Assembly: GCA_003697105.1 (NCBI GenBank)
Contig: RFFQ01000170.1
Span: 1-55,172 of the forward strand
DNA length: 55,172 nucleotides
Reading direction: 5' to 3'
Source: Gemmatimonadota bacterium
GTDB lineage: Bacteria; 4572-55; J002
The notes beneath the pieces are model-generated. The model searched no databases, was not told the origin of the DNA, and saw only the letters and a list, made by a program, of their open reading frames with translations. Shown here piece after piece: positions 1-44,808 of this stretch (position 1 is its first letter; the number at the start of each line of letters is the position of its first letter). A program made the translations under genes and the position numbers.

Positions 1-16
1 AGTGTGATAATTGCAT
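1..16 (-). CDS. 5' end of a gene running off the left edge (MQLSH...)
   Basis: Minus strand reads GAAAGGAG-ctatc-ATGCAATTATCACAC: a strong SD followed by ATG at 16. Confidence 0.5.
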
Positions 17-95
17 GATAGCTCCTTTCAGTAAAGTGAGCAATAATCAAACTATTTGATTCAATTTTATTCAAGTGCAGATTTCTGCGGAGACT

Positions 96-455
96 TCAGG
101 ATGCTTTTGACAATCGTGAGATCAAGCCGTTCAACATTTTGCCGATTTCAGCGATAGTATTTACCAGATGCTGGTACTCCTCTCCATTGAGATACGATAA
201 ATTCCGGGCGATAACTACTTGTGTTTCAACTTCATACCGCGACCCTCTTGCAATCCGTAAAAAACGAATGTAATCAGTGGTAGTAGCACGTCCCCACCCT
301 TCAGCAATATTTGAGGGGATGGAAACCGCTGCCCGCCGTAGTTGTCCTGCCAACCCGAACACTTCACTTTTAGGAAACGTGCGGGTCAAAACATAAATTT
401 GGTTCACCAGTTCAATTGCATTTTGCCAGACCTTCAACTCACGATACGATTGCAT
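96..455 (-). CDS. four-helix-bundle protein (23S rRNA IVS-like/bAvd-like family)
   Basis: Motifs YRELKVWQ, FPKSEVFGLAGQLRRAAVSIPSNIAEG, FLRIARGS..E.ETQ; likely ATG at 455. Confidence 0.93.
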   Translation of the reverse strand: MQSYRELKVWQNAIELVNQIYVLTRTFPKSEVFGLAGQLRRAAVSIPSNIAEGWGRATTTDYIRFLRIARGSRYEVETQVVIARNLSYLNGEEYQHLVNTIAEIGKMLNGLISRLSKAS

Positions 456-463
456 CCCACTAT

Positions 464-519
464 CTCCAACCCCCAACTCGTAAAACTCATCAACTCCCCA
501 ACTCCCTAACTCCTACTCA
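464..519. repeat. degenerate 8-9 bp AACTC/GAGTT tandem repeats between the recJ stop and the four-helix-bundle start
   Basis: ccaac ccccaactcg taaaactcat caactcccca actccctaac tcctactc; 475-498 is the exact reverse complement of 30190-30213. Confidence 0.85.
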
Positions 520-2240
520 CTAAATTTCAAGTCTTTGAGTCGCCCTTGAAGGGTGATCCGGCCATGCCAGCGATTTTCTTCCACGACATAGGCAATATCC
601 AATTTGGGGCGGGCGTAAGTGAGTTCATCCACTAAAGCGATAGTACCGAAACCAAAGCCGATAATTTCTAAGGTAACATCCCCTTGCCCGACGGTAAACT
701 TCAGATGATTACGCCCAACAATGCGTGGCGTCCCGACAACGTCCACACGGCGGGTCACCAGCACCGGACGCATATTTTGGGGTCCAAAAGGCGCAAATTG
801 TTTAAGATAAACATATAATTTGCCATTGATGACATCATCCAACGTAACTTCGCCTACCACTTCTAAATGGGGAATCAAATCCTCAGGTGTCAACGCATTG
901 GTTGCAACGGCATTGAAGCGTTCGCGGAAAGCGTGGATTCTCTCTTTACGAATGGTCAATCCCGCCGCGTGTTGGTGCCCACCGAATTCATCCAGCAGGT
1001 CACTACACTGCACCATCGCTTCATACAGATGAAAGGTGGGGATGCTGCGTGAACTTCCTTTACCCGCGCCGGTTTCAGGGTCTATCGAGATAAGGACAGT
1101 CGGACGGTAGTATTTTTCCACCAACCGGCTCGCGACAATTCCGATCACACCGGCGTGCCACTCTTCTGAGGCAAGGACTAGCCCCCGAGTATGTTCAATA
1201 TCGTACATCTCCTCGACCATGCGTTTCGCATCTTCGTAGATAGTTTCATCAATGTTTTGGCGGCGTTTATTTTCAGCATCCAGACCGTTGGCAATCTTCA
1301 AAGCGTGGGAATAGGTTGTCGCCATCAGCAATTCGACCCCGCGTTTAGCATCACCGATTCGCCCACCGGCATTGATTCGCGGCGCCAAGTTAAACACAAT
1401 TTCAGAACTACCGATCCGCCGCTGTTTCAGTCCGGCAACATGAATCAATGCCTTTAGCCCAACTCGAGGTGAAGTGTTGATCAAGCGCAATCCATAATGA
1501 GCAATCACCCGATTTTCATCCACTAAGGGCACAATGTCGGAGATCGTTCCGAGAGCGACAATGTCCAAATAATCGAACACAATTTGCAAGGGCTTATTCA
1601 TTACCCGGGTCACGGCACAAAGCAGTTTGAACGCCACCCCCGCACCGCATAAATCCGTAAAGGGATAGGTATCATCCGTCTGTTTGGGATTGATCACCGC
1701 CAATGCTTCCACGGGATTTTCACCGGGTTCGTGGTGATCGGTCACAATCATATCAATTCCGACCTTTTCCGCAAATTTTGCTTCGTCGGTGGCTCGAATG
1801 CCACAATCTACCGTGACAATCAACGAAATCCCATCTCGAAGTGCCTGCCGGATGCCTTCAATAGAAAGTCCGTAGCCCTCATTCATCCGGTCGGGGATGT
1901 AAAAATCGACATCACCACCCAAACGTCGCAACACAGAAAGAAGTAGAGACGTCCCGGTGATGCCATCGACATCATAATCACCATAGACCATGATCCGTTC
2001 TTTGTTTTGAAGCGCTTTGGCAAGGCGGTTTGCTGCTATAGCAATATCTTTCATCAAGAACGGGTCATGCAAACTCTCCAAGCTGGGATTTAAAAACTGG
2101 TGCGCTTTTTCAGGCGTGTTCCAACCCCGCTGTAATAAAATTTTGGCAATGACAGGCGGCACATCTAGGGCATCCATTAACTGATTTTGTAACCCGGCAT
2201 CCACCGGGGGCGGGAATACCCATTTTTTCTGTCCTCGCAT
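513..2240 (-). CDS. recJ: single-stranded-DNA-specific exonuclease RecJ
   Basis: YGDYDVDG, VDCG, TDHH, GGHQHAAG DHH/DHHA1 motifs; 575 aa. Confidence 0.97.
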   Translation of the reverse strand: MRGQKKWVFPPPVDAGLQNQLMDALDVPPVIAKILLQRGWNTPEKAHQFLNPSLESLHDPFLMKDIAIAANRLAKALQNKERIMVYGDYDVDGITGTSLLLSVLRRLGGDVDFYIPDRMNEGYGLSIEGIRQALRDGISLIVTVDCGIRATDEAKFAEKVGIDMIVTDHHEPGENPVEALAVINPKQTDDTYPFTDLCGAGVAFKLLCAVTRVMNKPLQIVFDYLDIVALGTISDIVPLVDENRVIAHYGLRLINTSPRVGLKALIHVAGLKQRRIGSSEIVFNLAPRINAGGRIGDAKRGVELLMATTYSHALKIANGLDAENKRRQNIDETIYEDAKRMVEEMYDIEHTRGLVLASEEWHAGVIGIVASRLVEKYYRPTVLISIDPETGAGKGSSRSIPTFHLYEAMVQCSDLLDEFGGHQHAAGLTIRKERIHAFRERFNAVATNALTPEDLIPHLEVVGEVTLDDVINGKLYVYLKQFAPFGPQNMRPVLVTRRVDVVGTPRIVGRNHLKFTVGQGDVTLEIIGFGFGTIALVDELTYARPKLDIAYVVEENRWHGRITLQGRLKDLKFSE

Positions 2241-2385
2241 TGATTTTCCTCAAATAGGTATGGAGTCAAGAGTCATCTTAATTGACCGTATTTTTAATCG
2301 CATTTTTCCGAAATCGCAAGGTTTTTTTAGGAAGTTATGAGAATCGAAGATGGGCACACCTGCCCGTCCGAACCGCAATTGTCTG

Positions 2386-2414
2386 TTGACAAGTGTACCG
2401 CATTATGCTATTCT
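2386..2414 (+). promoter_or_regulatory. sigma70-type promoter
   Basis: TTGACA-17 bp-TATTCT with TG extension, 52 bp before the 2467 ORF. Confidence 0.65.
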
Positions 2415-2466
2415 ATGTCCGATTTGATACCAACTCATCAATATATCATACGTTATAGCACTAAGG

Positions 2467-2895
2467 ATGTTCAGAATGTTTGATCCGAAAGAAGCCATCA
2501 ATACGTTCATGTCACAGGAAAATCTCCAGGAGGCCTACCCGATGGCGTCCTTTTTTATCCATGCTCATTCAGGGACAGTGGTACGGCGGGGCCCCTTTGA
2601 TATTATCAGCTTGGAACCCCTCGATGATGGGTATCATATTAAACTCTATATCCTTGATGAGGCGGAAATTCCGGCGAACCCGCTGGCGCGAAATCCGTTA
2701 TATTATAACAAAGTGCTAGAAGCCCGGCGTGCCGCCGATATTATCCGGAAGGGGCCGTTCGATTTTGTGATAAAAGGACAAGATGAGCGAAAGCAGAAAT
2801 TACACGCTAACGACATAAAAGCAATTACGGCTTACCAACTACTTTATTCCGCCAAGAAAAAAAAGGCATCTATCGGTGAAACCACGACGATATAA
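2467..2895 (+). CDS. hypothetical protein (142 aa)
   Basis: ORF with its own promoter, AAGG before ATG and a downstream terminator; no recognised motif. Confidence 0.7.
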   Translation: MFRMFDPKEAINTFMSQENLQEAYPMASFFIHAHSGTVVRRGPFDIISLEPLDDGYHIKLYILDEAEIPANPLARNPLYYNKVLEARRAADIIRKGPFDFVIKGQDERKQKLHANDIKAITAYQLLYSAKKKKASIGETTTI

Positions 2896-2958
2896 GATGC
2901 ATATGTGGCAACTTTCAATTCAGAGTACCCTTAATATGGTAGAATGGTATTCCGTATT

Positions 2959-2996
2959 AAACCCGTCATCCCCAACCGGTTGGCGGGTTTTATTTT
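2959..2996 (+). terminator. intrinsic terminator
   Basis: AAACCCGTCA...TGGCGGGTTT followed by TATTTT. Confidence 0.55.
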
Positions 2997-3009
2997 AGGA
3001 GCGAAGCAG

Positions 3010-15609: not shown

Positions 15610-18600
15610 GTGAAAACTATCGGCAAATATGAAATTGTGGAAGAACTGGACAAAGGAGATGTCGGGACATACTATCGAGTGCAGGATTTGGTTAATGAAA
15701 CATCATTTTTAATTCAGGAATTATACCCCAAACATGCCAACGATGATAATTTTGTCCGTCGCTTCCAACGAGCAGTAAAAGCCTCAGAATTTCTGCAACA
15801 TGATAATATTCTGAATACATTTGAATTTGGAAAATCAGAAACTTCAGTGTTCAATGTTTCGGACTACCACGACGGGTTAACCGTAAGCAAACTGTTGGCA
15901 CGTGTCAAGAAAATCCCGCTGGAAGTCAGTTGTGAGATTATCATCCAAAGTTGCCAAGGCTTGAAAAAAGCGCATCAGGAGAACATTATCCACCGGAACT
16001 TAAAACCCAATTTTATTTTGGTCGGCCGGGATGGCATTGTGCGCATTTCTGATTTTGGCCTAGCCTACAACGATGAAAAACTCGGGTCCATTCATTTGGT
16101 ACCCGCCCAGATTGGCACGGCGCATTATTTATCCAGTGAATTAGCTCTGGGGATGAAGCTGGATCAGCGGGCAGATATTTTCTCCTTGGGAATCATCTTT
16201 TATGAGATGTTGACCGGAGTGAATCCTTTTGCGGCAGAGACGTTTGCCGCTACGTTTACCAAGCTGAAATCCGAGGAACCGCCGGAAGCATTGATGAACC
16301 TCAACCCGGAGCTTCCAGAACGGATAAATACCATCGTCCAAAAGATGCTCAAGAAAAACCGCAATGACCGGTATAAAACATGCGATGATGTTCTGGATGA
16401 TCTGGCGTCATTCCTAAAATCGGTGGCGTTGCCCAGCGGCAAAGAACTACTAATACAATACATGCAAAGTCCAGAAAGCTATGCTCCAACACCGATTCCT
16501 GCAGAAAAACCACCTATCGTGGCGCCACCACCCTCTACTCCGGTAGAAACACCGGTTACCAGCGAAGAGACCGCTTTTTTTGAAGTTGATGTTCCCGCAT
16601 CGCCGCCCGTACAACCTGTCACTCCAGCAGATGAGAGCTTTGATCTGGATTTGGATATGACACCGGATGTGCCGGTAACCAGCCCCCCACCCGCCGAACC
16701 GGTAGCTTCTACCGCTAACGATTTTTTAGACTTAGATACGCCCGCCGCACCGGCACCACCGGTGGAGACGGTATCTTCCAGTGCGGATGATGATTTTCTG
16801 GATTTGGATATTCCAGCCCCAACACCCGCCCCGCCGGTAGCGGATCAGGTCGATGGGGGCACCCAACCCGTCTCATCCAGTACCGACGATGATTTTTTGG
16901 ATTTAGATATTCCGACAGCGGTCACAACACCGGAACCCACGCCTGCTTCCACCACAGATGATGACTTTCTGGATTTAGATACACCTCCGCCAGCCTCTGA
17001 AACCCCGGGGACACCTCCTGAACCCGCCACTCTCGACGATGATTTTTTAGATTTGGATGCACCCGCACCGGAAATTACACCCGCATCACCACCCCAACAA
17101 GAAGAAGAAACCTCCTTTTTTGACGTTGGTGCACCACCGGCCGCACCCGCTTCTGAACCGGCAGGGGTTGAAACGCCTGATACGGCTGAAGATGATGCCT
17201 TTTTCAATACGGTTGAAGGTCCACCAGAGCAGGTGACTCCCGAAGAAGTCGATGAAACCGCCGTATTTGAAAATCCACTCTTCCAAACCGGGGAACCGGT
17301 AGCAGCAAAACAACCACCCAGTGATACATCTGACGATCTGATTTTTACGGAAAAAACGGATGAGATCGAACTTACAGCGGGGGTCACTGCTAGTGAAGAA
17401 ACCTCCATTTTATCCGATGTTGATCTGGCAAGTGAGTTCAAAGAACCCACTCCCGTAGAGGCACCCAGCGCCCGCTCCGAAGAACCCCCCATGCCACCAC
17501 CAGAGCCATTGGACGAAGATTTACAATTCACGGATTTTAACGAAGATGTCGAAATTTTAGAGGACATCCCTGAGCTGGAAGATACAAAAGTCATCGAACC
17601 GGTACCTCAAACCGCCAAAGCGGAGCCGAAACCAAAACCAGAGCCAAAACCAGAGCCTCCCAAACCAAAAGCGGAAACACCAAAACCGAAACCGAAACCA
17701 GCACCTCCCAAACCAAAAGCGGAAACACCAAAACCGAAACCGAAACCGGCACCTCCCAAACCAAAAGCGGAAACACCAAAACCGTCCGAACCCGAACCCA
17801 AAGCGGTAAAACCCCACCCCTCGTCGCCAGTCGATGAAAAGTGGGTAAAATACCTGGTGTGGGCGGCAGGTCTCCTGATTCTCATCAATGCCGGTCTCTT
17901 TTTCGGACTTCGGAACCCGCAGGAAGCCGTGCTACTGGTGGAAAGTACCCCGGACAATGCCAAAGTCGCCGTTAATGGAATTGTGCGGGCATCTCAAACT
18001 CCAGCCATTATACGAGCGTTGAAACCCGGCGAGCATTTGATCGAATTGACAAATGGTGATCTGGTGTTTCAGCATACCGTCACCCTCGAAGGTGGAAAAA
18101 AATACCGGCTCGTCGCCACGTTGTATGACCCCTCGCTATTGGAAGAGATGGAAGAACCGGCATCCACGCCAACGGTCATCGCCGAAGAGAGCGAAAATTT
18201 ACGGCAAGTTAAAATATTATCGGAACCTTCGGGAGCGTACATTTATATCAATGGTGAGCCGGCAGGCACCTCACCCAGCACAGTAAATTTACCTTTGGGT
18301 ACCGTTGAAGTCAAACTGATCGCCGTGGGATATGAAGATTACGTGACCGAAATCGGGCATACCGAGACGCCTCAAGAACTTAAAATTACGCTCACGCCCA
18401 TAGAACAACCGGCAGAGGTTGTGGCGGAAACCCCCACCACACCGGACCAGCCCGAAGAAACAACCTTTTCCACAACGATTTCTACGAATCCACCGGGCGC
18501 AACGGTGTATGTCCAAGGGAAAGCATACGATCAAAAAACCCCACTGTCCTTGGAGCTACCTACCGGAGATTATCCGGTACGGATCGAAATCGAAGGATAT

Positions 18601-29440: not shown

Positions 29441-30172
29441 TTAAGATTTATGAGCAAATAAAATCATGCGGTTACTTTGTTGGGGGTCATAAGGTTCACC
29501 GGTGTAAGAACCGTATATCTCATCAAGGGTAAGTCCCACATTATCAAACAAATCCTGCATTTCAGGTAAGGAGTACAGCCGCACGGATTCTAAAAATGTT
29601 CGGACACTCTCCCCATCAGAGACGGTAATCTCTTTTTCTACCCGATGGTGCGCAACCCAACGACGTTGGGTGACATGATACTTCCCGACATGCTTTTCGT
29701 CGAACGGGACTAAATGCGCGATAACATACGATGGATTCAGATAATCTAAGATCAATGTTCCATCGGGCTGGAGGACTCGGGCATATTCGAGGAACACTCC
29801 TTTATTTTCATCATCATCAAAATAGCCAAAACTGGTAAACAGGCTTAGCACGGTCGAAAAAACCTGATCTCGAAACGGTAATTGGCGCATATCTCCTCGA
29901 ACAAAAGGGACATCTAATTTTGCCTTATGAATAGCTTTTTGCGCTACGCGGAGTAAATCTGGGGATAAATCCATCCCAATAACCGGATACCCTCGTTTTG
30001 CCAATTCCAAGCTATGCCGTCCGTTTCCGCATCCACAATCTAATATCCATGTTGTTGATGATTGTAAAAGCCGGTTTTGGATCAATTCTAACAATTGCCG
30101 GGCATCTGCCACATTCCGGTGAGCATATACCCGAAGATAAATTTCGTTGAACCAGTCACGATACCAAGTCAT
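29441..30172 (-). CDS. class I SAM-dependent methyltransferase (candidate N-methyl-bacillithiol synthase)
   Basis: LDCGCGNGRH, GDMRQLPF, LFTSFGYF; 15 bp upstream of bshC. Confidence 0.88.
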   Translation of the reverse strand: MTWYRDWFNEIYLRVYAHRNVADARQLLELIQNRLLQSSTTWILDCGCGNGRHSLELAKRGYPVIGMDLSPDLLRVAQKAIHKAKLDVPFVRGDMRQLPFRDQVFSTVLSLFTSFGYFDDDENKGVFLEYARVLQPDGTLILDYLNPSYVIAHLVPFDEKHVGKYHVTQRRWVAHHRVEKEITVSDGESVRTFLESVRLYSLPEMQDLFDNVGLTLDEIYGSYTGEPYDPQQSNRMILFAHKS

Positions 30173-30174
30173 AG

Positions 30175-30420
30175 GAGTTTTACGAGTTTGGGAGTTGATG
30201 AGTTTTACGAGTTTTACGAGTTTGGGAGTTGATGAGTTTTACGAGTTGATGAGTTTTACGAGTTTTACGAGTTTGGGAGTTGATGAGTTTTACGAGTTCA
30301 TGAGTTTTACGAGTTTTACGAGTTTATGAGTTTTACGAGTTTATGAGTTTTACGAGTTTATGAGTTTTACGAGTTTGATGAGTTCATCCTTCATCCTTCA
30401 TCCTTCATCCTTCATCCTTC
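30175..30420. repeat. composite array: about 25 GAGTT-led 8/9-bp units followed by (TTCATCC)5
   Basis: Units GAGTTTTAC, GAGTTTGG, GAGTTGAT, GAGTTTAT, GAGTTCAT; heptamers at 30383-30417. Confidence 0.97.
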
Positions 30421-30434
30421 CGATGCCTTCCGCC

Positions 30435-31151
30435 TTACTTTTGGTGAGTGGGGCGAATATCAATATCGCTGACCAAAGCTCGTTCCGGCATTATCAGGGC
30501 ACTGATGATCACATCGGCGACGTCCTTTGGATGGAGGATTTTATCTCGATTTGGTGGTTCAAAGCCCGCATTATCGAAAAACGGGGTATCAACTGATCCC
30601 GGGCAAACCGATAACACCCGGATATTGTGTTTTCGGACTTCCATCATCAGTGATTTGGTAAAGCCGAGTACCGCATGTTTGGTAGCACAATAACCCGAAC
30701 CACCCGGTACCGGATTTTTACCCGCCAAGGATGCCACATTGACAATAGCGCCTTGCTGGTTACGAATCATGGTGGGTAACACCGCTTTGGTGCAAAGGAA
30801 CAATCCCCGGACATTCACATTCCACATCAAATCCCATTCTTCAACCGTTGCTTCCACCACCGGCTTGAAAATCCCCAACCCGGCATTGTTGACCAAAATA
30901 TCAACGGTGTCCATCATTCGCAAAGTTTGATCGATCATCGCCGCAATCTGGTCTTTATCCGTCAGATCGGTGGGGATGACAATGCACTTTCGCCCAAACC
31001 GTTGAATGCGGGCGGCAACGGCTCGCAATTCCTCTCGGGAGCGGCTTGCCAGCGCCACATGTGCTCCCTGTGAAGCCAGTTTTAAAGCTACAGCTCGCCC
31101 AATACCCCGGCTTGCCCCTGTGACCAATGCCACCTTATTTGTGAGTGTCAT
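30435..31151 (-). CDS. short-chain dehydrogenase/reductase
   Basis: TGASRGIG, NNAG, YCATK. Confidence 0.93.
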   Translation of the reverse strand: MTLTNKVALVTGASRGIGRAVALKLASQGAHVALASRSREELRAVAARIQRFGRKCIVIPTDLTDKDQIAAMIDQTLRMMDTVDILVNNAGLGIFKPVVEATVEEWDLMWNVNVRGLFLCTKAVLPTMIRNQQGAIVNVASLAGKNPVPGGSGYCATKHAVLGFTKSLMMEVRKHNIRVLSVCPGSVDTPFFDNAGFEPPNRDKILHPKDVADVIISALIMPERALVSDIDIRPTHQK

Positions 31152-31435
31152 AACCGTCCTTTCCCGCATTCATGCTAAAAGAGATAGTCAAATTCCCAGC
31201 GATAGAATAACCGCGGAGATGCATAATGTCAAGCCCGAAGGCATTTAAGCTGTAGCGTTCTACATTCAAGAGGTTCACGTTGTGAGCATCCCCATAAAAA
31301 TCTTGTTTATTTCAGCGTAACCGATTATCTTTTCCGGCAAATTTGTGATTATTTCCAAATGACTTCGTGAGATTTATTCGGCAGAATAGAATTTTAATTC
31401 CTCATTATTTCTTAACCTAGAAGGAGTTTATTGCA

Positions 31436-41893: not shown

Positions 41894-44773
41894 TTATTGG
41901 TGTTTCGCTCGTTGTTTTGCCTTCAATAATCGTGACGTATAGCTTTCGGTCTCATCCGGCGGTTCATGCTCCGTCACATCACGTTGTGGAGGAGCGGGGG
42001 CTTCGATATCCGGTATATCGGGCATAAACACCGTACCGGTGGTTTCGGTGGAATGTGAGGAAAGGTCAGGTTCTTCAGAAGTGGATATAGCGGGCGTCTT
42101 GTGATGCTTTAATTCTTGTTTGCGGTGGATCAATTGTGACATCCCGGCACTCCGAGAAGGACGGTTTTCCGGACGCGGTTTGGGGGTCAGATAACTCCTC
42201 ATCCCAGCTAATTTCGCCACAAGTGGGTCAAATTGGTGCCACTCGATCATCAACCGGCGGATGAGAACATCCAGAAAAAAAAGCACAATCGCAATTTGAA
42301 CTAGGTACTCCCAAATATCTACCGGTAACGTAACGGTCTCTAAATTGTGTTGGTACACCTCTTCAGGAGACCGGATCAGTGTCCCTCCGGTCTGTTGGGC
42401 GGCATGTTGCAACAAATTGGGGTCACTCTCAAAAGATTGAAATTCAGAGGAATACGGAATTTTTAAGCCGGCAGTCTCAAATCCGGTTTGGTCTTTAGCG
42501 AAAATATGAACTAGGTAAATTCCGGGTTCATTAATGGCAAACTCACTTTCATACCGTCCCGGGGCGGTTTGGCGGATGCGTAGCGGTTTATTTTCCAGTT
42601 TTGGATTGACCAACACACCTTCTAATTCCAAAAAATTACGGAAATTACCGGCGGCATCTATGGCATCGATAACCACGTGCCCCTTTTGTTGGATGGCTTC
42701 TAACCGCACATCAAAGGGCTGAGTGGAAACCTTGCGCATCGTCCAGCGGAGAACTTGCTGCCAAAAGGGCTGAAAATATGCCCAATTCAGCCAATTGACC
42801 GCCCAACGTGTGTCTGCATCGGAAGTAAATGCCACCGACCGACCCAAACCAAATTGCCATGCTGCCAGCAGTGGAGCATCATGGTGGGTAACCCAGATCG
42901 TCTCTGCGGTGGACTTGGGGGAGGTCCCTACATAGCCTAACAGTGGGGGTACTAGCGGGGGAATTCCCTTCAACATTGGGTGCGGTTGCACCTGCCGCGG
43001 GACAAATTCTTCCTCAATCAGGTACGAACGCGATGCCAAGAGGGTCTCTTTCGTGAATATCTGGGGAACACGACGCGCATTTTTACTGGCATAATACCGC
43101 CCGCCCCCGCGTTGGGCTAGTTGTTGCATTAATAGGTCATCCGCATCCCCACCAATCGCCACTGTAGAGATGGTAATATTGGCGCCGGTTGCCTTCTGCA
43201 CCAATGAATCAAAATTTCCCGGGGCAGTGCGTCCATCGGATAAAATAATAATATGCTTAAGTTGGGTTTCGAGCGTTTTCAAGGCGTTAATAGCTTCTGC
43301 CAATGCCGGTTCTAGGTTTGTCCCGCCTCCCGGACGCAGAGTCGCCACCTCGGATATAATTCGTTTACGCTCATTTGTCGCCCGCATCTTCACGATCCAT
43401 TTTGCCGCGCCATCGAAGCCGATAACACCTACCCGGTCGGTATCAGAAAGTAAAGAGATAGAGGCAATAGTAGCTTCCTTGGCAATTTCAATCTTTTCCA
43501 CACCGCCACTCAAATCTGCCATACTACCCGATTTATCGATCACGAACACAATCCCCAGCGAAGGAAAATAGGTTTTGCTCTTCAAATCCATATTGACCGG
43601 TAAGGCACGCTCAACAGGTGTTTGATAGTAACCTCCCACGCCAAAGCTATTTTCTCCCCCGACCATGATAAAGCCCCCGCCAAAATCCCGCACGTAGCTT
43701 TCCACCGCCCGCATTTGGTCATCCGAAAACTGAAGGGCAGAAACATTGTTGATCAGAATGGCGTCGTAATTTTGTAACGCGATCAACGAGCCCGGCAGTT
43801 GTCCCGCCGAACCCACATCAATATCCAGCGAAGTGGTGAGCGGCAAGAGTGCCTGCTGAAGTGGCTCCGAAGGGTTAATCAGTAAGACCTTGGAACGCCC
43901 CACAACCCGCGTGAACGAACCCGCCCGGTTATTTTCGACAATCTGATCCGAATCCGTTTCTAAACGCACATCATAGGTAAATAGACCCGTCTCATCGAGA
44001 ACTTCCCGAAAACGATAGACTTCTTTCCCGGGATCGAGTTTTACCATTACCGGTTCACGAACCGGGCTGCCATTCCGGTAAAGCCAAAGAGTACCTTTCG
44101 CCTTGCCGGAACTCCGTAAAATCGTTGCCACCTCAAAGGGTTCGCCGGGGTTGATCGTTTGCGGAGTAATGACATCTTCCACTAGAACCTCTTGAGTAAC
44201 TTCCATCTGGAGCGGAATCACACTGATTTCGATACCATTTGTGCCCGCTAACGAGGCTTCCTGCAACAAGTCACCCTCCGTTTGATTCCCATCACTGATG
44301 ATCACAATCCGTTTTTGGGCGTCTGGTGGGAAAAGCCCCATCCCTAAACGCACGGCTTCCGCCAGATTGCTAGCCGTCCGTATTGGAGTCGATGTAAACG
44401 TACCTAATACAGGGGTCGCTACAGGAGTTTGTTCGACCAGTGCATTCTTCCCGAATAAAATAATACCCAAGATGTCATCCGCCGGTTTTTCTGCCGCCAC
44501 CAACTGGATAAAACTCTGTGCAAACGGTTCGCTTTGGTGGCGAATACTATCCGACACATCAACCAAAAAGATCACCGCTAATTTCTGGCTGGATTTGACC
44601 CACTGTATCCCTGCCAAACTGAAGATCAATAACAAAAAGAGAGTCACCCGCAAGATCAAGGAAATGACCCGTCGAAAAAAAGGTATATCAGATAAACTGT
44701 GACGATACCATTTAAATATCCAGTAAAGCAACGGTAACAGCAGCAAAAATAAGGGCTTAGAAAAGGTGATCAT
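41894..44773 (-). CDS. membrane VWA-domain protein (BatA-like N-terminus, two VWA domains, GATase-like domain)
   Basis: DVSDS and DKSGSM MIDAS motifs, ISDG/LSDG, GGGFIMVGG..SFG.GGY, WQFGLGRSVAFTSD. Confidence 0.88.
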   Translation of the reverse strand: MITFSKPLFLLLLPLLYWIFKWYRHSLSDIPFFRRVISLILRVTLFLLLIFSLAGIQWVKSSQKLAVIFLVDVSDSIRHQSEPFAQSFIQLVAAEKPADDILGIILFGKNALVEQTPVATPVLGTFTSTPIRTASNLAEAVRLGMGLFPPDAQKRIVIISDGNQTEGDLLQEASLAGTNGIEISVIPLQMEVTQEVLVEDVITPQTINPGEPFEVATILRSSGKAKGTLWLYRNGSPVREPVMVKLDPGKEVYRFREVLDETGLFTYDVRLETDSDQIVENNRAGSFTRVVGRSKVLLINPSEPLQQALLPLTTSLDIDVGSAGQLPGSLIALQNYDAILINNVSALQFSDDQMRAVESYVRDFGGGFIMVGGENSFGVGGYYQTPVERALPVNMDLKSKTYFPSLGIVFVIDKSGSMADLSGGVEKIEIAKEATIASISLLSDTDRVGVIGFDGAAKWIVKMRATNERKRIISEVATLRPGGGTNLEPALAEAINALKTLETQLKHIIILSDGRTAPGNFDSLVQKATGANITISTVAIGGDADDLLMQQLAQRGGGRYYASKNARRVPQIFTKETLLASRSYLIEEEFVPRQVQPHPMLKGIPPLVPPLLGYVGTSPKSTAETIWVTHHDAPLLAAWQFGLGRSVAFTSDADTRWAVNWLNWAYFQPFWQQVLRWTMRKVSTQPFDVRLEAIQQKGHVVIDAIDAAGNFRNFLELEGVLVNPKLENKPLRIRQTAPGRYESEFAINEPGIYLVHIFAKDQTGFETAGLKIPYSSEFQSFESDPNLLQHAAQQTGGTLIRSPEEVYQHNLETVTLPVDIWEYLVQIAIVLFFLDVLIRRLMIEWHQFDPLVAKLAGMRSYLTPKPRPENRPSRSAGMSQLIHRKQELKHHKTPAISTSEEPDLSSHSTETTGTVFMPDIPDIEAPAPPQRDVTEHEPPDETESYTSRLLKAKQRAKHQ

Positions 44774-44808
44774 GGGATCAGGGTTTAGGGATTAGGGATC
44801 AGGGATTG
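44774..44808 (+). repeat. heptamer array GGGATCA/GGGTTTA/GGGATTA x5
   Basis: gggatca gggttta gggatta gggatca gggattg, directly abutting the VWA gene ATG. Confidence 0.85.

Follow-up and report, generated by a model that had tools for sequence, protein, structure and literature searches.

We find that a 55,172-nucleotide stretch of DNA from a Gemmatimonadota bacterium (contig RFFQ01000170.1 of assembly GCA_003697105.1; the whole stretch is called the window here) carries near its start, directly behind recJ, a gene for a four-helix-bundle protein of the PF05635 family preceded by short repeats with a GAGTT core, and that such genes and such repeats are statistically associated both in this genome and across others. 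With modest confidence, we read positions 96–512 of the minus strand as a PF05635 cassette of the intervening sequence (IVS) type, in which the protein would bind the repeat unit, gene and repeats would travel together, and slippage would reshape the arrays. The recJ copy has the features by which we recognize such cassettes, namely a purine-rich tandem array directly upstream on the coding strand and a position at a gene junction on the same strand as the upstream gene.

The gene, its predicted fold and its 5′ arm

For the open reading frame (ORF) at 96..476(−), the ATG at 455 is the most likely start and gives a protein of 119 amino acids. This protein matches PF05635, ‘23S rRNA-intervening sequence protein’ (E 1.7e-40, 137.9 bits against a Pfam cut-off of 33.8), TIGR02436, ‘four helix bundle protein’ (E 7.2e-39, 132.4 bits against an NCBIfam cut-off of 24), and NF008911 (150.4 against 137). 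It aligns end to end with 19 homologues, in which the PSNIAEGWG block is invariant, and contains the R..S...N..E block conserved in the family, as that motif is quoted in a passage of PMC3936711.

An AlphaFold model built on the homologue alignment predicted four long helices with a predicted local distance difference test score (pLDDT) of 95.3. Its top structural match was Xcc0516 (2GSC; template modelling (TM) score 0.94, 48% identity), next came BT_0352 (2RLD), and after these phage Avd (4DWL) and the ribonucleoprotein structures 8UB* of diversity-generating retroelements (DGRs), at TM ~0.79 and 10% identity. Avd is a pentamer that binds RNA and reverse transcriptase. The Avd hidden Markov models (HMMs) stayed below cut-off for the 119-amino-acid protein (NF033474, 36.6 against 80; PF22296, 34.1 against 40). 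By HMM the protein is a member of PF05635/TIGR02436, and by model it is a predicted four-helix bundle with an Avd-like fold; an earlier note on this DNA, written from the sequence, had called the fold related to Avd, and the kinship holds at the level of structure and does not extend to family membership. The Protein Data Bank deposits of 2GSC and 2RLD contain 5 chains each, and by analogy with its solved relative 2GSC the PF05635 protein probably forms a ring oligomer. A pentamer is stated for an S23p-family protein in a passage of PMC4990558.

The arm fills the whole spacer between the two genes, and the same note's description of this gap as 57 bp of G-rich short units proved accurate: 456–512 consists of GAGTT-ending units followed by degenerate G-rich ones. 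On the coding strand, five GAGTT-core units of 7–9 bases occupy 475–512, the unit parse reading GAGTTAGG, GAGTTGGG, GAGTTGAT, GAGTTTTAC; 3′ of them come the degenerate units and then a Shine–Dalgarno (SD)-like GGAG ~9 bases before the ATG.

Complementary arms of PF05635 cassettes evolve in concert

We assembled 107 PF05635 loci, comprising 24 genes from 10 of 30 reference genomes, the 80 nearest homologues on named genome contigs (47–59% identity; from Chloroflexota, Bacteroidota, Planctomycetota, Patescibacteria and others) and the three copies of the source genome. Three loci were dropped for N runs or a short flank, leaving 104 cassettes in which the 120-base upstream flank was compared with the reverse-complemented 120-base downstream flank, with thresholds at the 99th percentile of shuffles and the 95th percentile of mismatched pairs (score 25). 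The 5′ and 3′ flanks were complementary above the shuffle threshold in 62/104 cassettes. Furthermore, the mismatched-pair threshold was exceeded by the inverted score in 53/104 and by direct similarity in only 6/104.

With a strict tandem detector and the 95th percentile of 773 control windows as threshold, 70/104 cassettes had at least one arm and 28/104 had arms on both sides. The median arm has ~3.5 units, and the period is 7 in most cases (39/47 upstream and 44/51 downstream arms). Read on the coding strand, upstream arms are mostly purine-rich (purine fraction >0.6 in 31/47) and downstream arms mostly pyrimidine-rich (purine fraction <0.4 in 35/51). A single context, the Bacteroidota sdhA–sdhB junction, accounts for 59 of the 104 cassettes. 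Inverted flanks were nevertheless present in 27/45 cassettes outside this context and, when counted by protein clusters at 70% identity, in 34/54; both neighbours were co-directional in 23 of the 45 cassettes of other contexts.

The orthologous sdhA–sdhB cassettes allowed the two arms to be followed across species. For these 59 orthologues, the median fit was 24 between a cassette's own arms, against 16 with arms from other species and 18 between orthologous arms. Since own arms fit best, these results indicate that the two arms of orthologous cassettes evolve in concert, and this concerted evolution looks strand-symmetric.

The Bacteroidota nearest homologues all lie between an sdhA-like stop and an sdhB-like start with the ORF intact (L054–L130, 59 loci), and their short inverted arms differ by species yet remain complementary; the sdhA–sdhB cassette gives the impression of an insertion that is old and has been retained. 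An otherwise well-conserved ORF is interrupted by one in-frame stop in two of the 80 nearest homologues (L065:2001-2354 and L100:2001-2378), one of the two coming from a Patescibacteria-group genome.

GAGTT arrays stand before two of the three PF05635 genes in the source genome

The source assembly comprises 4.18 Mb in 199 contigs and is 96.85% complete. Defining a GAGTT array as at least three GAGTT cores, we found 53 arrays with 463 units and 3765 bases in total. Unit length is 8 bases (270 units) or 9 bases (130 units), not 7 as in heptamer repeats, and ten of the 42 unit types make up 346/410 parsed units. Arrays lie almost always outside called ORFs (51/53, with 2 inside): the flanking ORFs are co-directional for 22/53 (13 arrays sense, 9 antisense), convergent for 4 and divergent for 2; for 18 a contig end takes the place of one flanking ORF, and 5 have their nearest ORF >300 bases off. 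The GAGTT family breaks the assembly: 14 of its arrays are no more than 100 bases from the end of a contig.

PF05635 has three matches in this genome, on contigs C49, C101 and C113. A sense GAGTT array stands just upstream of 11 of the 3176 called ORFs, and these 11 include two of the three PF05635 genes, those on C49 and C101 (hypergeometric test, P = 3.3e-5 for sense arrays and 2.4e-4 for arrays in any orientation). Genome-wide mapping thus bears out the expected association of GAGTT arrays with four-helix-bundle genes, and a tie of such genes to short tandem repeats is also seen across genomes; the companion proposal, which tied TTCATCC arrays to GxxExxY genes, has no such gene in this genome to attach to, as searches of the genome for the GxxExxY and Avd families returned nothing above cut-off. 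The C101 copy is a remnant, an 88-amino-acid ORF that covers profile positions 1–51 only and is neighboured by glutamate-dehydrogenase-like and lipoate-ligase-like genes (named by eye). Upstream of it runs a 266-base sense GAGTT array that starts at the stop codon of the preceding gene, and downstream lie two inverted AACTC units. Among the 77 array-adjacent ORFs, the paralogue families were the two PF05635 genes and three unrelated pairs.

Two further arrangements of GAGTT arrays were observed. At C121:1-430, a GAGTT array, a 63-amino-acid ORF and an inverted AACTC array of 14 units follow one another, and the predicted fold pairs the arms; the ORF has a weak RelB-antitoxin-like match (E 0.0023, below cut-off), so that cassette-type arms here surround a gene outside PF05635. 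At C66:5780-6540, a flavodoxin gene has direct GAGTT arrays on both sides, with a TTACATGAACCCC stretch after each array, which looks like the outcome of an exchange between arrays that placed or duplicated the gene. A clustered regularly interspaced short palindromic repeat (CRISPR) array was considered and ruled out for the GAGTT family, as the units abut, their variable part is just 3–4 bases and there are no ~30-base spacers.

Array density and unit identity follow the resident gene

We then asked how arrays are distributed in a blind sample of 30 genomes from 29 families, in which windows were chosen regardless of content (the first 20 kb of contigs 1–4, or four spaced windows if there was a single large contig) and arrays were accepted at period 7 or 8, at least 3 copies and a Tandem Repeats Finder (TRF) score of at least 40. 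PF05635-positive genomes contained 21 arrays in 676 kb, with at least one array in 7/10 genomes, whereas PF05635-negative genomes contained 4 arrays in 1467 kb, all within 2/20 genomes and with A/T-rich units. Array density was thus ~11-fold higher in PF05635-positive genomes (Mann–Whitney U test, p = 4e-4; Fisher test, p = 0.0017). The blind sample itself included two PF05635 matches, neither adjoining an array. When a unit match was defined as at most 1 mismatch over the unit plus 4 bases, 7/19 gene-less arrays matched an arm belonging to a cassette of their own genome, against 10/152 cross-genome controls (p = 6.7e-4).

The five genomes with the nearest homologues (G031–G035; 52–59% identity) have arms and many dispersed arrays with a GGAGT/GAGTT core; pattern hits numbered 115, 106, 245, 166 and 422, against 13, 26, 7, 128 and 1 in controls, and G031 has a single PF05635 gene. 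Hits to GAGTT with its spacer numbered 131 in G033 and 19 in G031, against 6 in G001 and 3 in G002, both relatives of the same class; G006 had 0. By recJ identity to the window recJ, G031–G035 (36–42%) are more distant than the same-class G001 and G002 (47%) and yet GAGTT-rich, which argues, on this one marker, that the repeat family tracks the lineage of the gene and not that of the host.

A shared 24-mer reflects a small unit vocabulary

The 24-mer GGGAGTTGATGAGTTTTACGAGTT at 475–498(−) was reported to occur three times in the array at 30175–30420, and it does so exactly, at 30190, 30224 and 30275(+), with a 2-mismatch copy at 30241. Exact copies did not arise in any of 100 dinucleotide-preserving shuffles. 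Within the family, three-unit strings were held in common by 26 array pairs among the 53 arrays, against 34.7 under a within-array shuffle and 27.6 under a global shuffle, and two-unit strings common to arrays numbered 189 against 298 in the global shuffle, i.e. fewer than expected. The 24-mer match is far beyond chance when set against random sequence and unremarkable within the GAGTT family. With three-unit sharing at shuffle level, its identity is explained as the product of a small unit vocabulary, and copying between the recJ arm and the 30175 array was ruled out as an inference from it. As the arm belongs to the dominant dispersed family of the genome, the array at 30175–30384 is its sibling and not its copy. 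The only string confined to the two arrays of this contig is the di-unit GAGTTGAT+GAGTTTTAC, which begins with the rare unit GAGTTGAT.

In the 30175 array, TRF further detected higher-order periodicity at 17, 34 and 51 bases. Taken together with array-specific unit sets and the scarcity of common two-unit strings, these periods fit local slippage or unequal exchange. The suggestion that the repeats are enzymatically generated found no footing, since such periods are typical of slippage or unequal exchange and the 96.85%-complete assembly has no RVT_1 match above cut-off.

A proposed mechanism and the observations against it

Our reading of 96–512 as an IVS-type cassette would work as follows. 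The protein, as a ring oligomer, would recognize the repeat unit in single-stranded nucleic acid, the substrate being a guess; that it binds its own repeat unit at all is probable. Gene and repeat family would transfer jointly between genomes, and the arrays would then grow, shrink and shuffle locally through replication slippage or unequal exchange, without a reverse transcriptase. The recJ transcript probably runs on into the cassette, since the two genes share a strand and no promoter-like or terminator-like site was found on the minus strand between them.

A broader claim, which we advance tentatively as a possibility, is that PF05635 proteins are the trans-acting partner of the dispersed heptamer-type repeats, including TAACTGA, GGGAATC and the short tandemly repeated repetitive (STRR) sequences, which are dispersed short tandem repeats of cyanobacteria. 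Units would be specific to paralogues, arms would be the home copies, and an arriving gene would seed and maintain arrays without transposase or reverse transcriptase.

A number of observations weigh against the reading of 96–512 as such a cassette. In the source genome, the third PF05635 copy, on C113 (24% identical), is without repeats or arms, and the association is lopsided, as 51/53 GAGTT arrays have no adjacent PF05635 gene. The genome also contains ~26 heptamer arrays of other families (GAAGGAT/TTCATCC, GGATTAG, TTTAGGG, AGCTAGA and AATTGTG), and these at least five unit families have no matching PF05635 gene. Among the scored cassettes, 42/104 lack significant inverted flanks. The recJ copy shows no 3′ arm, its 3′ side being cut off by the contig end: only 95 bases follow the stop codon, all of them part of a multi-copy element, and the inverted flank score of 13 is below the control median. 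The element and the contig end behind the stop codon hide any 3′ arm that this copy may have. Folded as RNA, and again with its 3′ side cut off, the recJ copy is not unusual (z −0.01). Mismatches in 1800 stem pairs included 62 G.U and 67 A.C; as G.U is not above A.C, nothing points to a sense-strand RNA helix under selection.

Two further points concern the comparison between genomes. Phylogenetic control of the genome-level association consisted of one genome per family only. In G033, which has five paralogues each with its own unit, the 59%-identical protein has AGGAGTC heptamer arms, and it is a 37%-identical paralogue whose arms agree with the GAGTT 9-mers dispersed there. Repeat units cannot simply be read off from protein similarity, and a quick tree of 102 rows was too poorly resolved to set protein clades against repeat units.

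Alternative explanations

We consider it rather unlikely that the cassette is a pure RNA element of the rRNA-IVS kind, in which the arms would form a stem cut by RNase III that releases or silences the ORF, the periodicity would be incidental and the dispersed arrays would be debris of decayed cassettes. In its favour, the helix-45 IVS of Coxiella burnetii is described in passages of PMC4990558 with a 28-bp terminal stem that RNase III cuts and with two to three GACAGAT heptamers, in strain-variable copy number, directly upstream of its S23p ORF. The cassette of the nearest homologue likewise folds into a terminal stem (z −3.35, 0/100 shuffles as good), arms co-evolve in orthologues, and the decayed C101 copy retains its 266-base 5′ arm and two inverted units. 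However, the numbers of G.U and A.C mismatches are unlike those of selected RNA helices, and no stem is visible at the recJ copy, whose 3′ side is cut off. Furthermore, arrays between co-directional genes occur in both orientations, and most dispersed arrays are single-orientation and cannot pair; one inverted pair, on C121, was noticed among the 53, with no systematic search for such pairs.

It is unlikely, too, that gene and repeats have met by coincidence, i.e. that the genome is rich in slippage-prone intergenic repeats, a horizontally acquired gene happens into such spacers and the protein is unrelated to them. A coincidence would not be expected to put sense arrays before two of three PF05635 genes, to give complementary flanks to 62/104 cassettes when direct similarity exceeds the mismatched-pair threshold in 6, to make arrays ~11-fold denser in PF05635-positive genomes, or to let units match resident arms in 7/19 against 10/152 cases; a single 5-base core in 53 separate arrays is also unlike independent slippage. 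What speaks for it is the large majority of arrays without an adjacent PF05635 gene (51/53 GAGTT and all ~26 heptamer arrays), the unrelated genes also flanked by arrays (the RelB-like ORF on C121 and the flavodoxin gene on C66), the chance level of 24-mer sharing within the GAGTT family, and the description of heptamer repeats without an associated gene in the portions of PMC4679880 and PMC4692102 that deal with them.

That the arrays are host cis-regulatory or structural elements (for instance runs of SD-like GGAG, stops in every frame or G-quadruplexes at operon junctions), which the gene exploits or tolerates, strikes us as improbable. Such a role would suit the 22/53 arrays in spacers between co-directional genes, the GGAG in sense units and the TGA or TAG in many of them, and translational roles and G-quadruplex formation have been proposed for heptamer repeats in passages of PMC4679880 and PMC4692102. 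The mixed orientation of these arrays (13 sense, 9 antisense) does not suit it, and it leaves unexplained why the unit family follows the arms of the resident cassette and why genomes lacking the gene have so few arrays.

Finally, it is very improbable that a DGR-like or other retroelement is at work, with an Avd-like protein as partner of a reverse transcriptase that, like telomerase, would copy an RNA template into repeats: the similarity of fold to Avd and to DGR ribonucleoproteins and the weak Avd HMM matches are countered by the sub-cut-off scores of those same models, by 42 heterogeneous unit types with multi-unit periods, which are not the copies of one template, and by a genome search for reverse transcriptase that yielded a single 22-bit RVT_1 fragment with two stops in the 96.85%-complete assembly and no match above cut-off. 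The reverse transcriptase and GxxExxY parts of the earlier proposal therefore fall away, neither having been found in the genome.

Relation to known systems

The cassette is built like ORF-bearing IVSs of 23S rRNA, for which a passage of PMC4990558 names Leptospira, Brucella and Xanthomonas in addition to Coxiella. The protein family is the same, both have short tandem repeats immediately 5′ of the ORF, and complementary ends enclose the ORF in most sampled cassettes. In contrast, the recJ copy lies between recJ and a multi-copy element and not in a 23S helix (Rfam and tRNA scans of the window gave zero matches), it shows no visible 3′ arm or stem, and its arm family also occupies 53 dispersed sites, a feature unreported for IVSs in the excerpts of PMC4990558. 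The likeness to Avd, with which PF05635 is equated in DGR loci in a passage of PMC10053308, lies in the four-helix-bundle fold (TM 0.79). It does not extend to sequence identity, at 10%, to the Avd HMMs or to the company of a reverse transcriptase in the genome, and no pair of template and variable repeats is present here.

Dispersed heptamer repeats are the closest known counterpart of the arrays. TAACTGA heptamers are described from Beggiatoaceae, cyanobacteria and Bacteroidetes in passages of PMC4679880, which suspect horizontal spread with ‘no mechanism evident’, and GGGAATC and GGGGAYT heptamers from Xanthomonas and Nostoc, respectively, in passages of PMC4692102. Like them, the GAGTT arrays are tandem and intergenic, have short non-triplet units, occupy many sites per genome in mixed orientation and coexist with several other families; they differ in units of 8–9 bases with a fixed 5-base core. 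The terms ‘four helix’, ‘S23’ and ‘intervening sequence’ have 0 occurrences in the main texts of these two papers.

Genes of the same family are also known from CRISPR-associated loci: a passage of PMC3936711 counts 18 23S_rRNA_IVP genes lodged within cas loci, one such position being that between cmr3 and cmr2, and the family is listed among CRISPR-linked proteins in a figure legend of PMC10910872. Those genes share with ours the position between operon genes and the RxxxSxxxNxxE block; they are read as Cas-associated, and flanking repeats go unmentioned in the excerpts of PMC3936711. We found no paper that links PF05635 to flanking or dispersed repeats generally, the Coxiella heptamers being the one case, with the proviso that supplements may list neighbours. 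The addition made here to the work on heptamer repeats is the tie of such repeats to PF05635 genes.

Two puzzles meet at this tie, the function of the widespread ‘23S IVS / S23p / Avd-like’ four-helix-bundle proteins and the origin of the dispersed heptamer-type repeats of cyanobacteria, Bacteroidota, Xanthomonas, Beggiatoaceae and others; a link between gene and repeat would merge them into one testable question. The source genome offers a clean test case: it contains one intact gene together with a decayed copy, its dominant repeat family keeps a 5-base core fixed, and the search for a reverse transcriptase found none. Should each subunit indeed read one 7–9-base unit, the protein would also offer a compact, programmable way of binding repeats.

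The recJ locus and other features of the window

The cassette was further compared with recJ loci of other organisms. The nearest recJ genes have 47–48% identity to the window recJ in genomes and ≤46% in metagenome contigs, and a PF05635 gene near recJ was found at 0/9 genome and 0/80 metagenome loci, all of them too distant to define an empty site. In the comparison of filled and empty sites proposed in the earlier note, the cassette stands behind recJ in the source genome only among the sampled recJ loci, and relatives at 47–48% recJ identity at best supply no empty site. No RNA run was listed as covering positions 1–3000 of the window. Length variants of the arm were not seen in contigs of public runs X1–X4, which drop rare variants.

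The multi-copy element abuts the four-helix-bundle gene and includes its stop codon, and the contig ends inside the element. Read depth over positions 1–87/99 of the window was 230–303 against 24 elsewhere (contigs of runs X1 and X2), and a second copy in the source genome (G000), at C41:13-111, is identical at 98/99 bases, after which C41 continues into other DNA. The element begins an ORF (MQLSHYLNG...), and another copy, in run X2, has a GGATTAG heptamer array alongside; the element may be an insertion sequence that lands beside repeat arrays.

Table 1. Repeat arrays, genes and other elements located in the window
Feature	Position	Strand	Basis
End of multi-copy element, ~10 copies	1..99	.	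Read depth; second copy on C41
Four-helix-bundle protein gene, 119 amino acids	96..455	−	PF05635 / TIGR02436 matches; stop codon 96-98
5′ repeat arm, whole spacer from recJ stop to gene start, 57 bases	456..512	−	Sequence; array call; TRF period 8
recJ, upstream gene, same strand as four-helix-bundle gene	513..2240	−	TIGR00644, E 5.5e-168
Gene-less GAGTT array, 25 units	30175..30384	+	Sequence; TRF
TTCATCC x5.4, abuts GAGTT array	30383..30420	+	TRF; GAAGGAT/TTCATCC family
GGGATYA heptamer array in divergent intergenic region	44768-44807

The gene-less GAGTT array sits between a short-chain dehydrogenase/reductase gene (30435..31169, −) and a methyltransferase gene (29441..30172, −), antisense to both. 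The GAAGGAT/TTCATCC family, a member of which abuts this array, occurs in ~8 places in the genome. Two gene-less composites in G033 (L341 and L342, on C513 and C218), in which GAGTT 9-mers adjoin TGTTCAT-type heptamers in mirror-image order, resemble the junction of GAGTT and TTCATCC arrays at 30383 of the window. Elsewhere in the window, an ACC/AAA-rich tandem repeat at 17631-17784 has a period of 48 and 3.2 copies with 93% matches.

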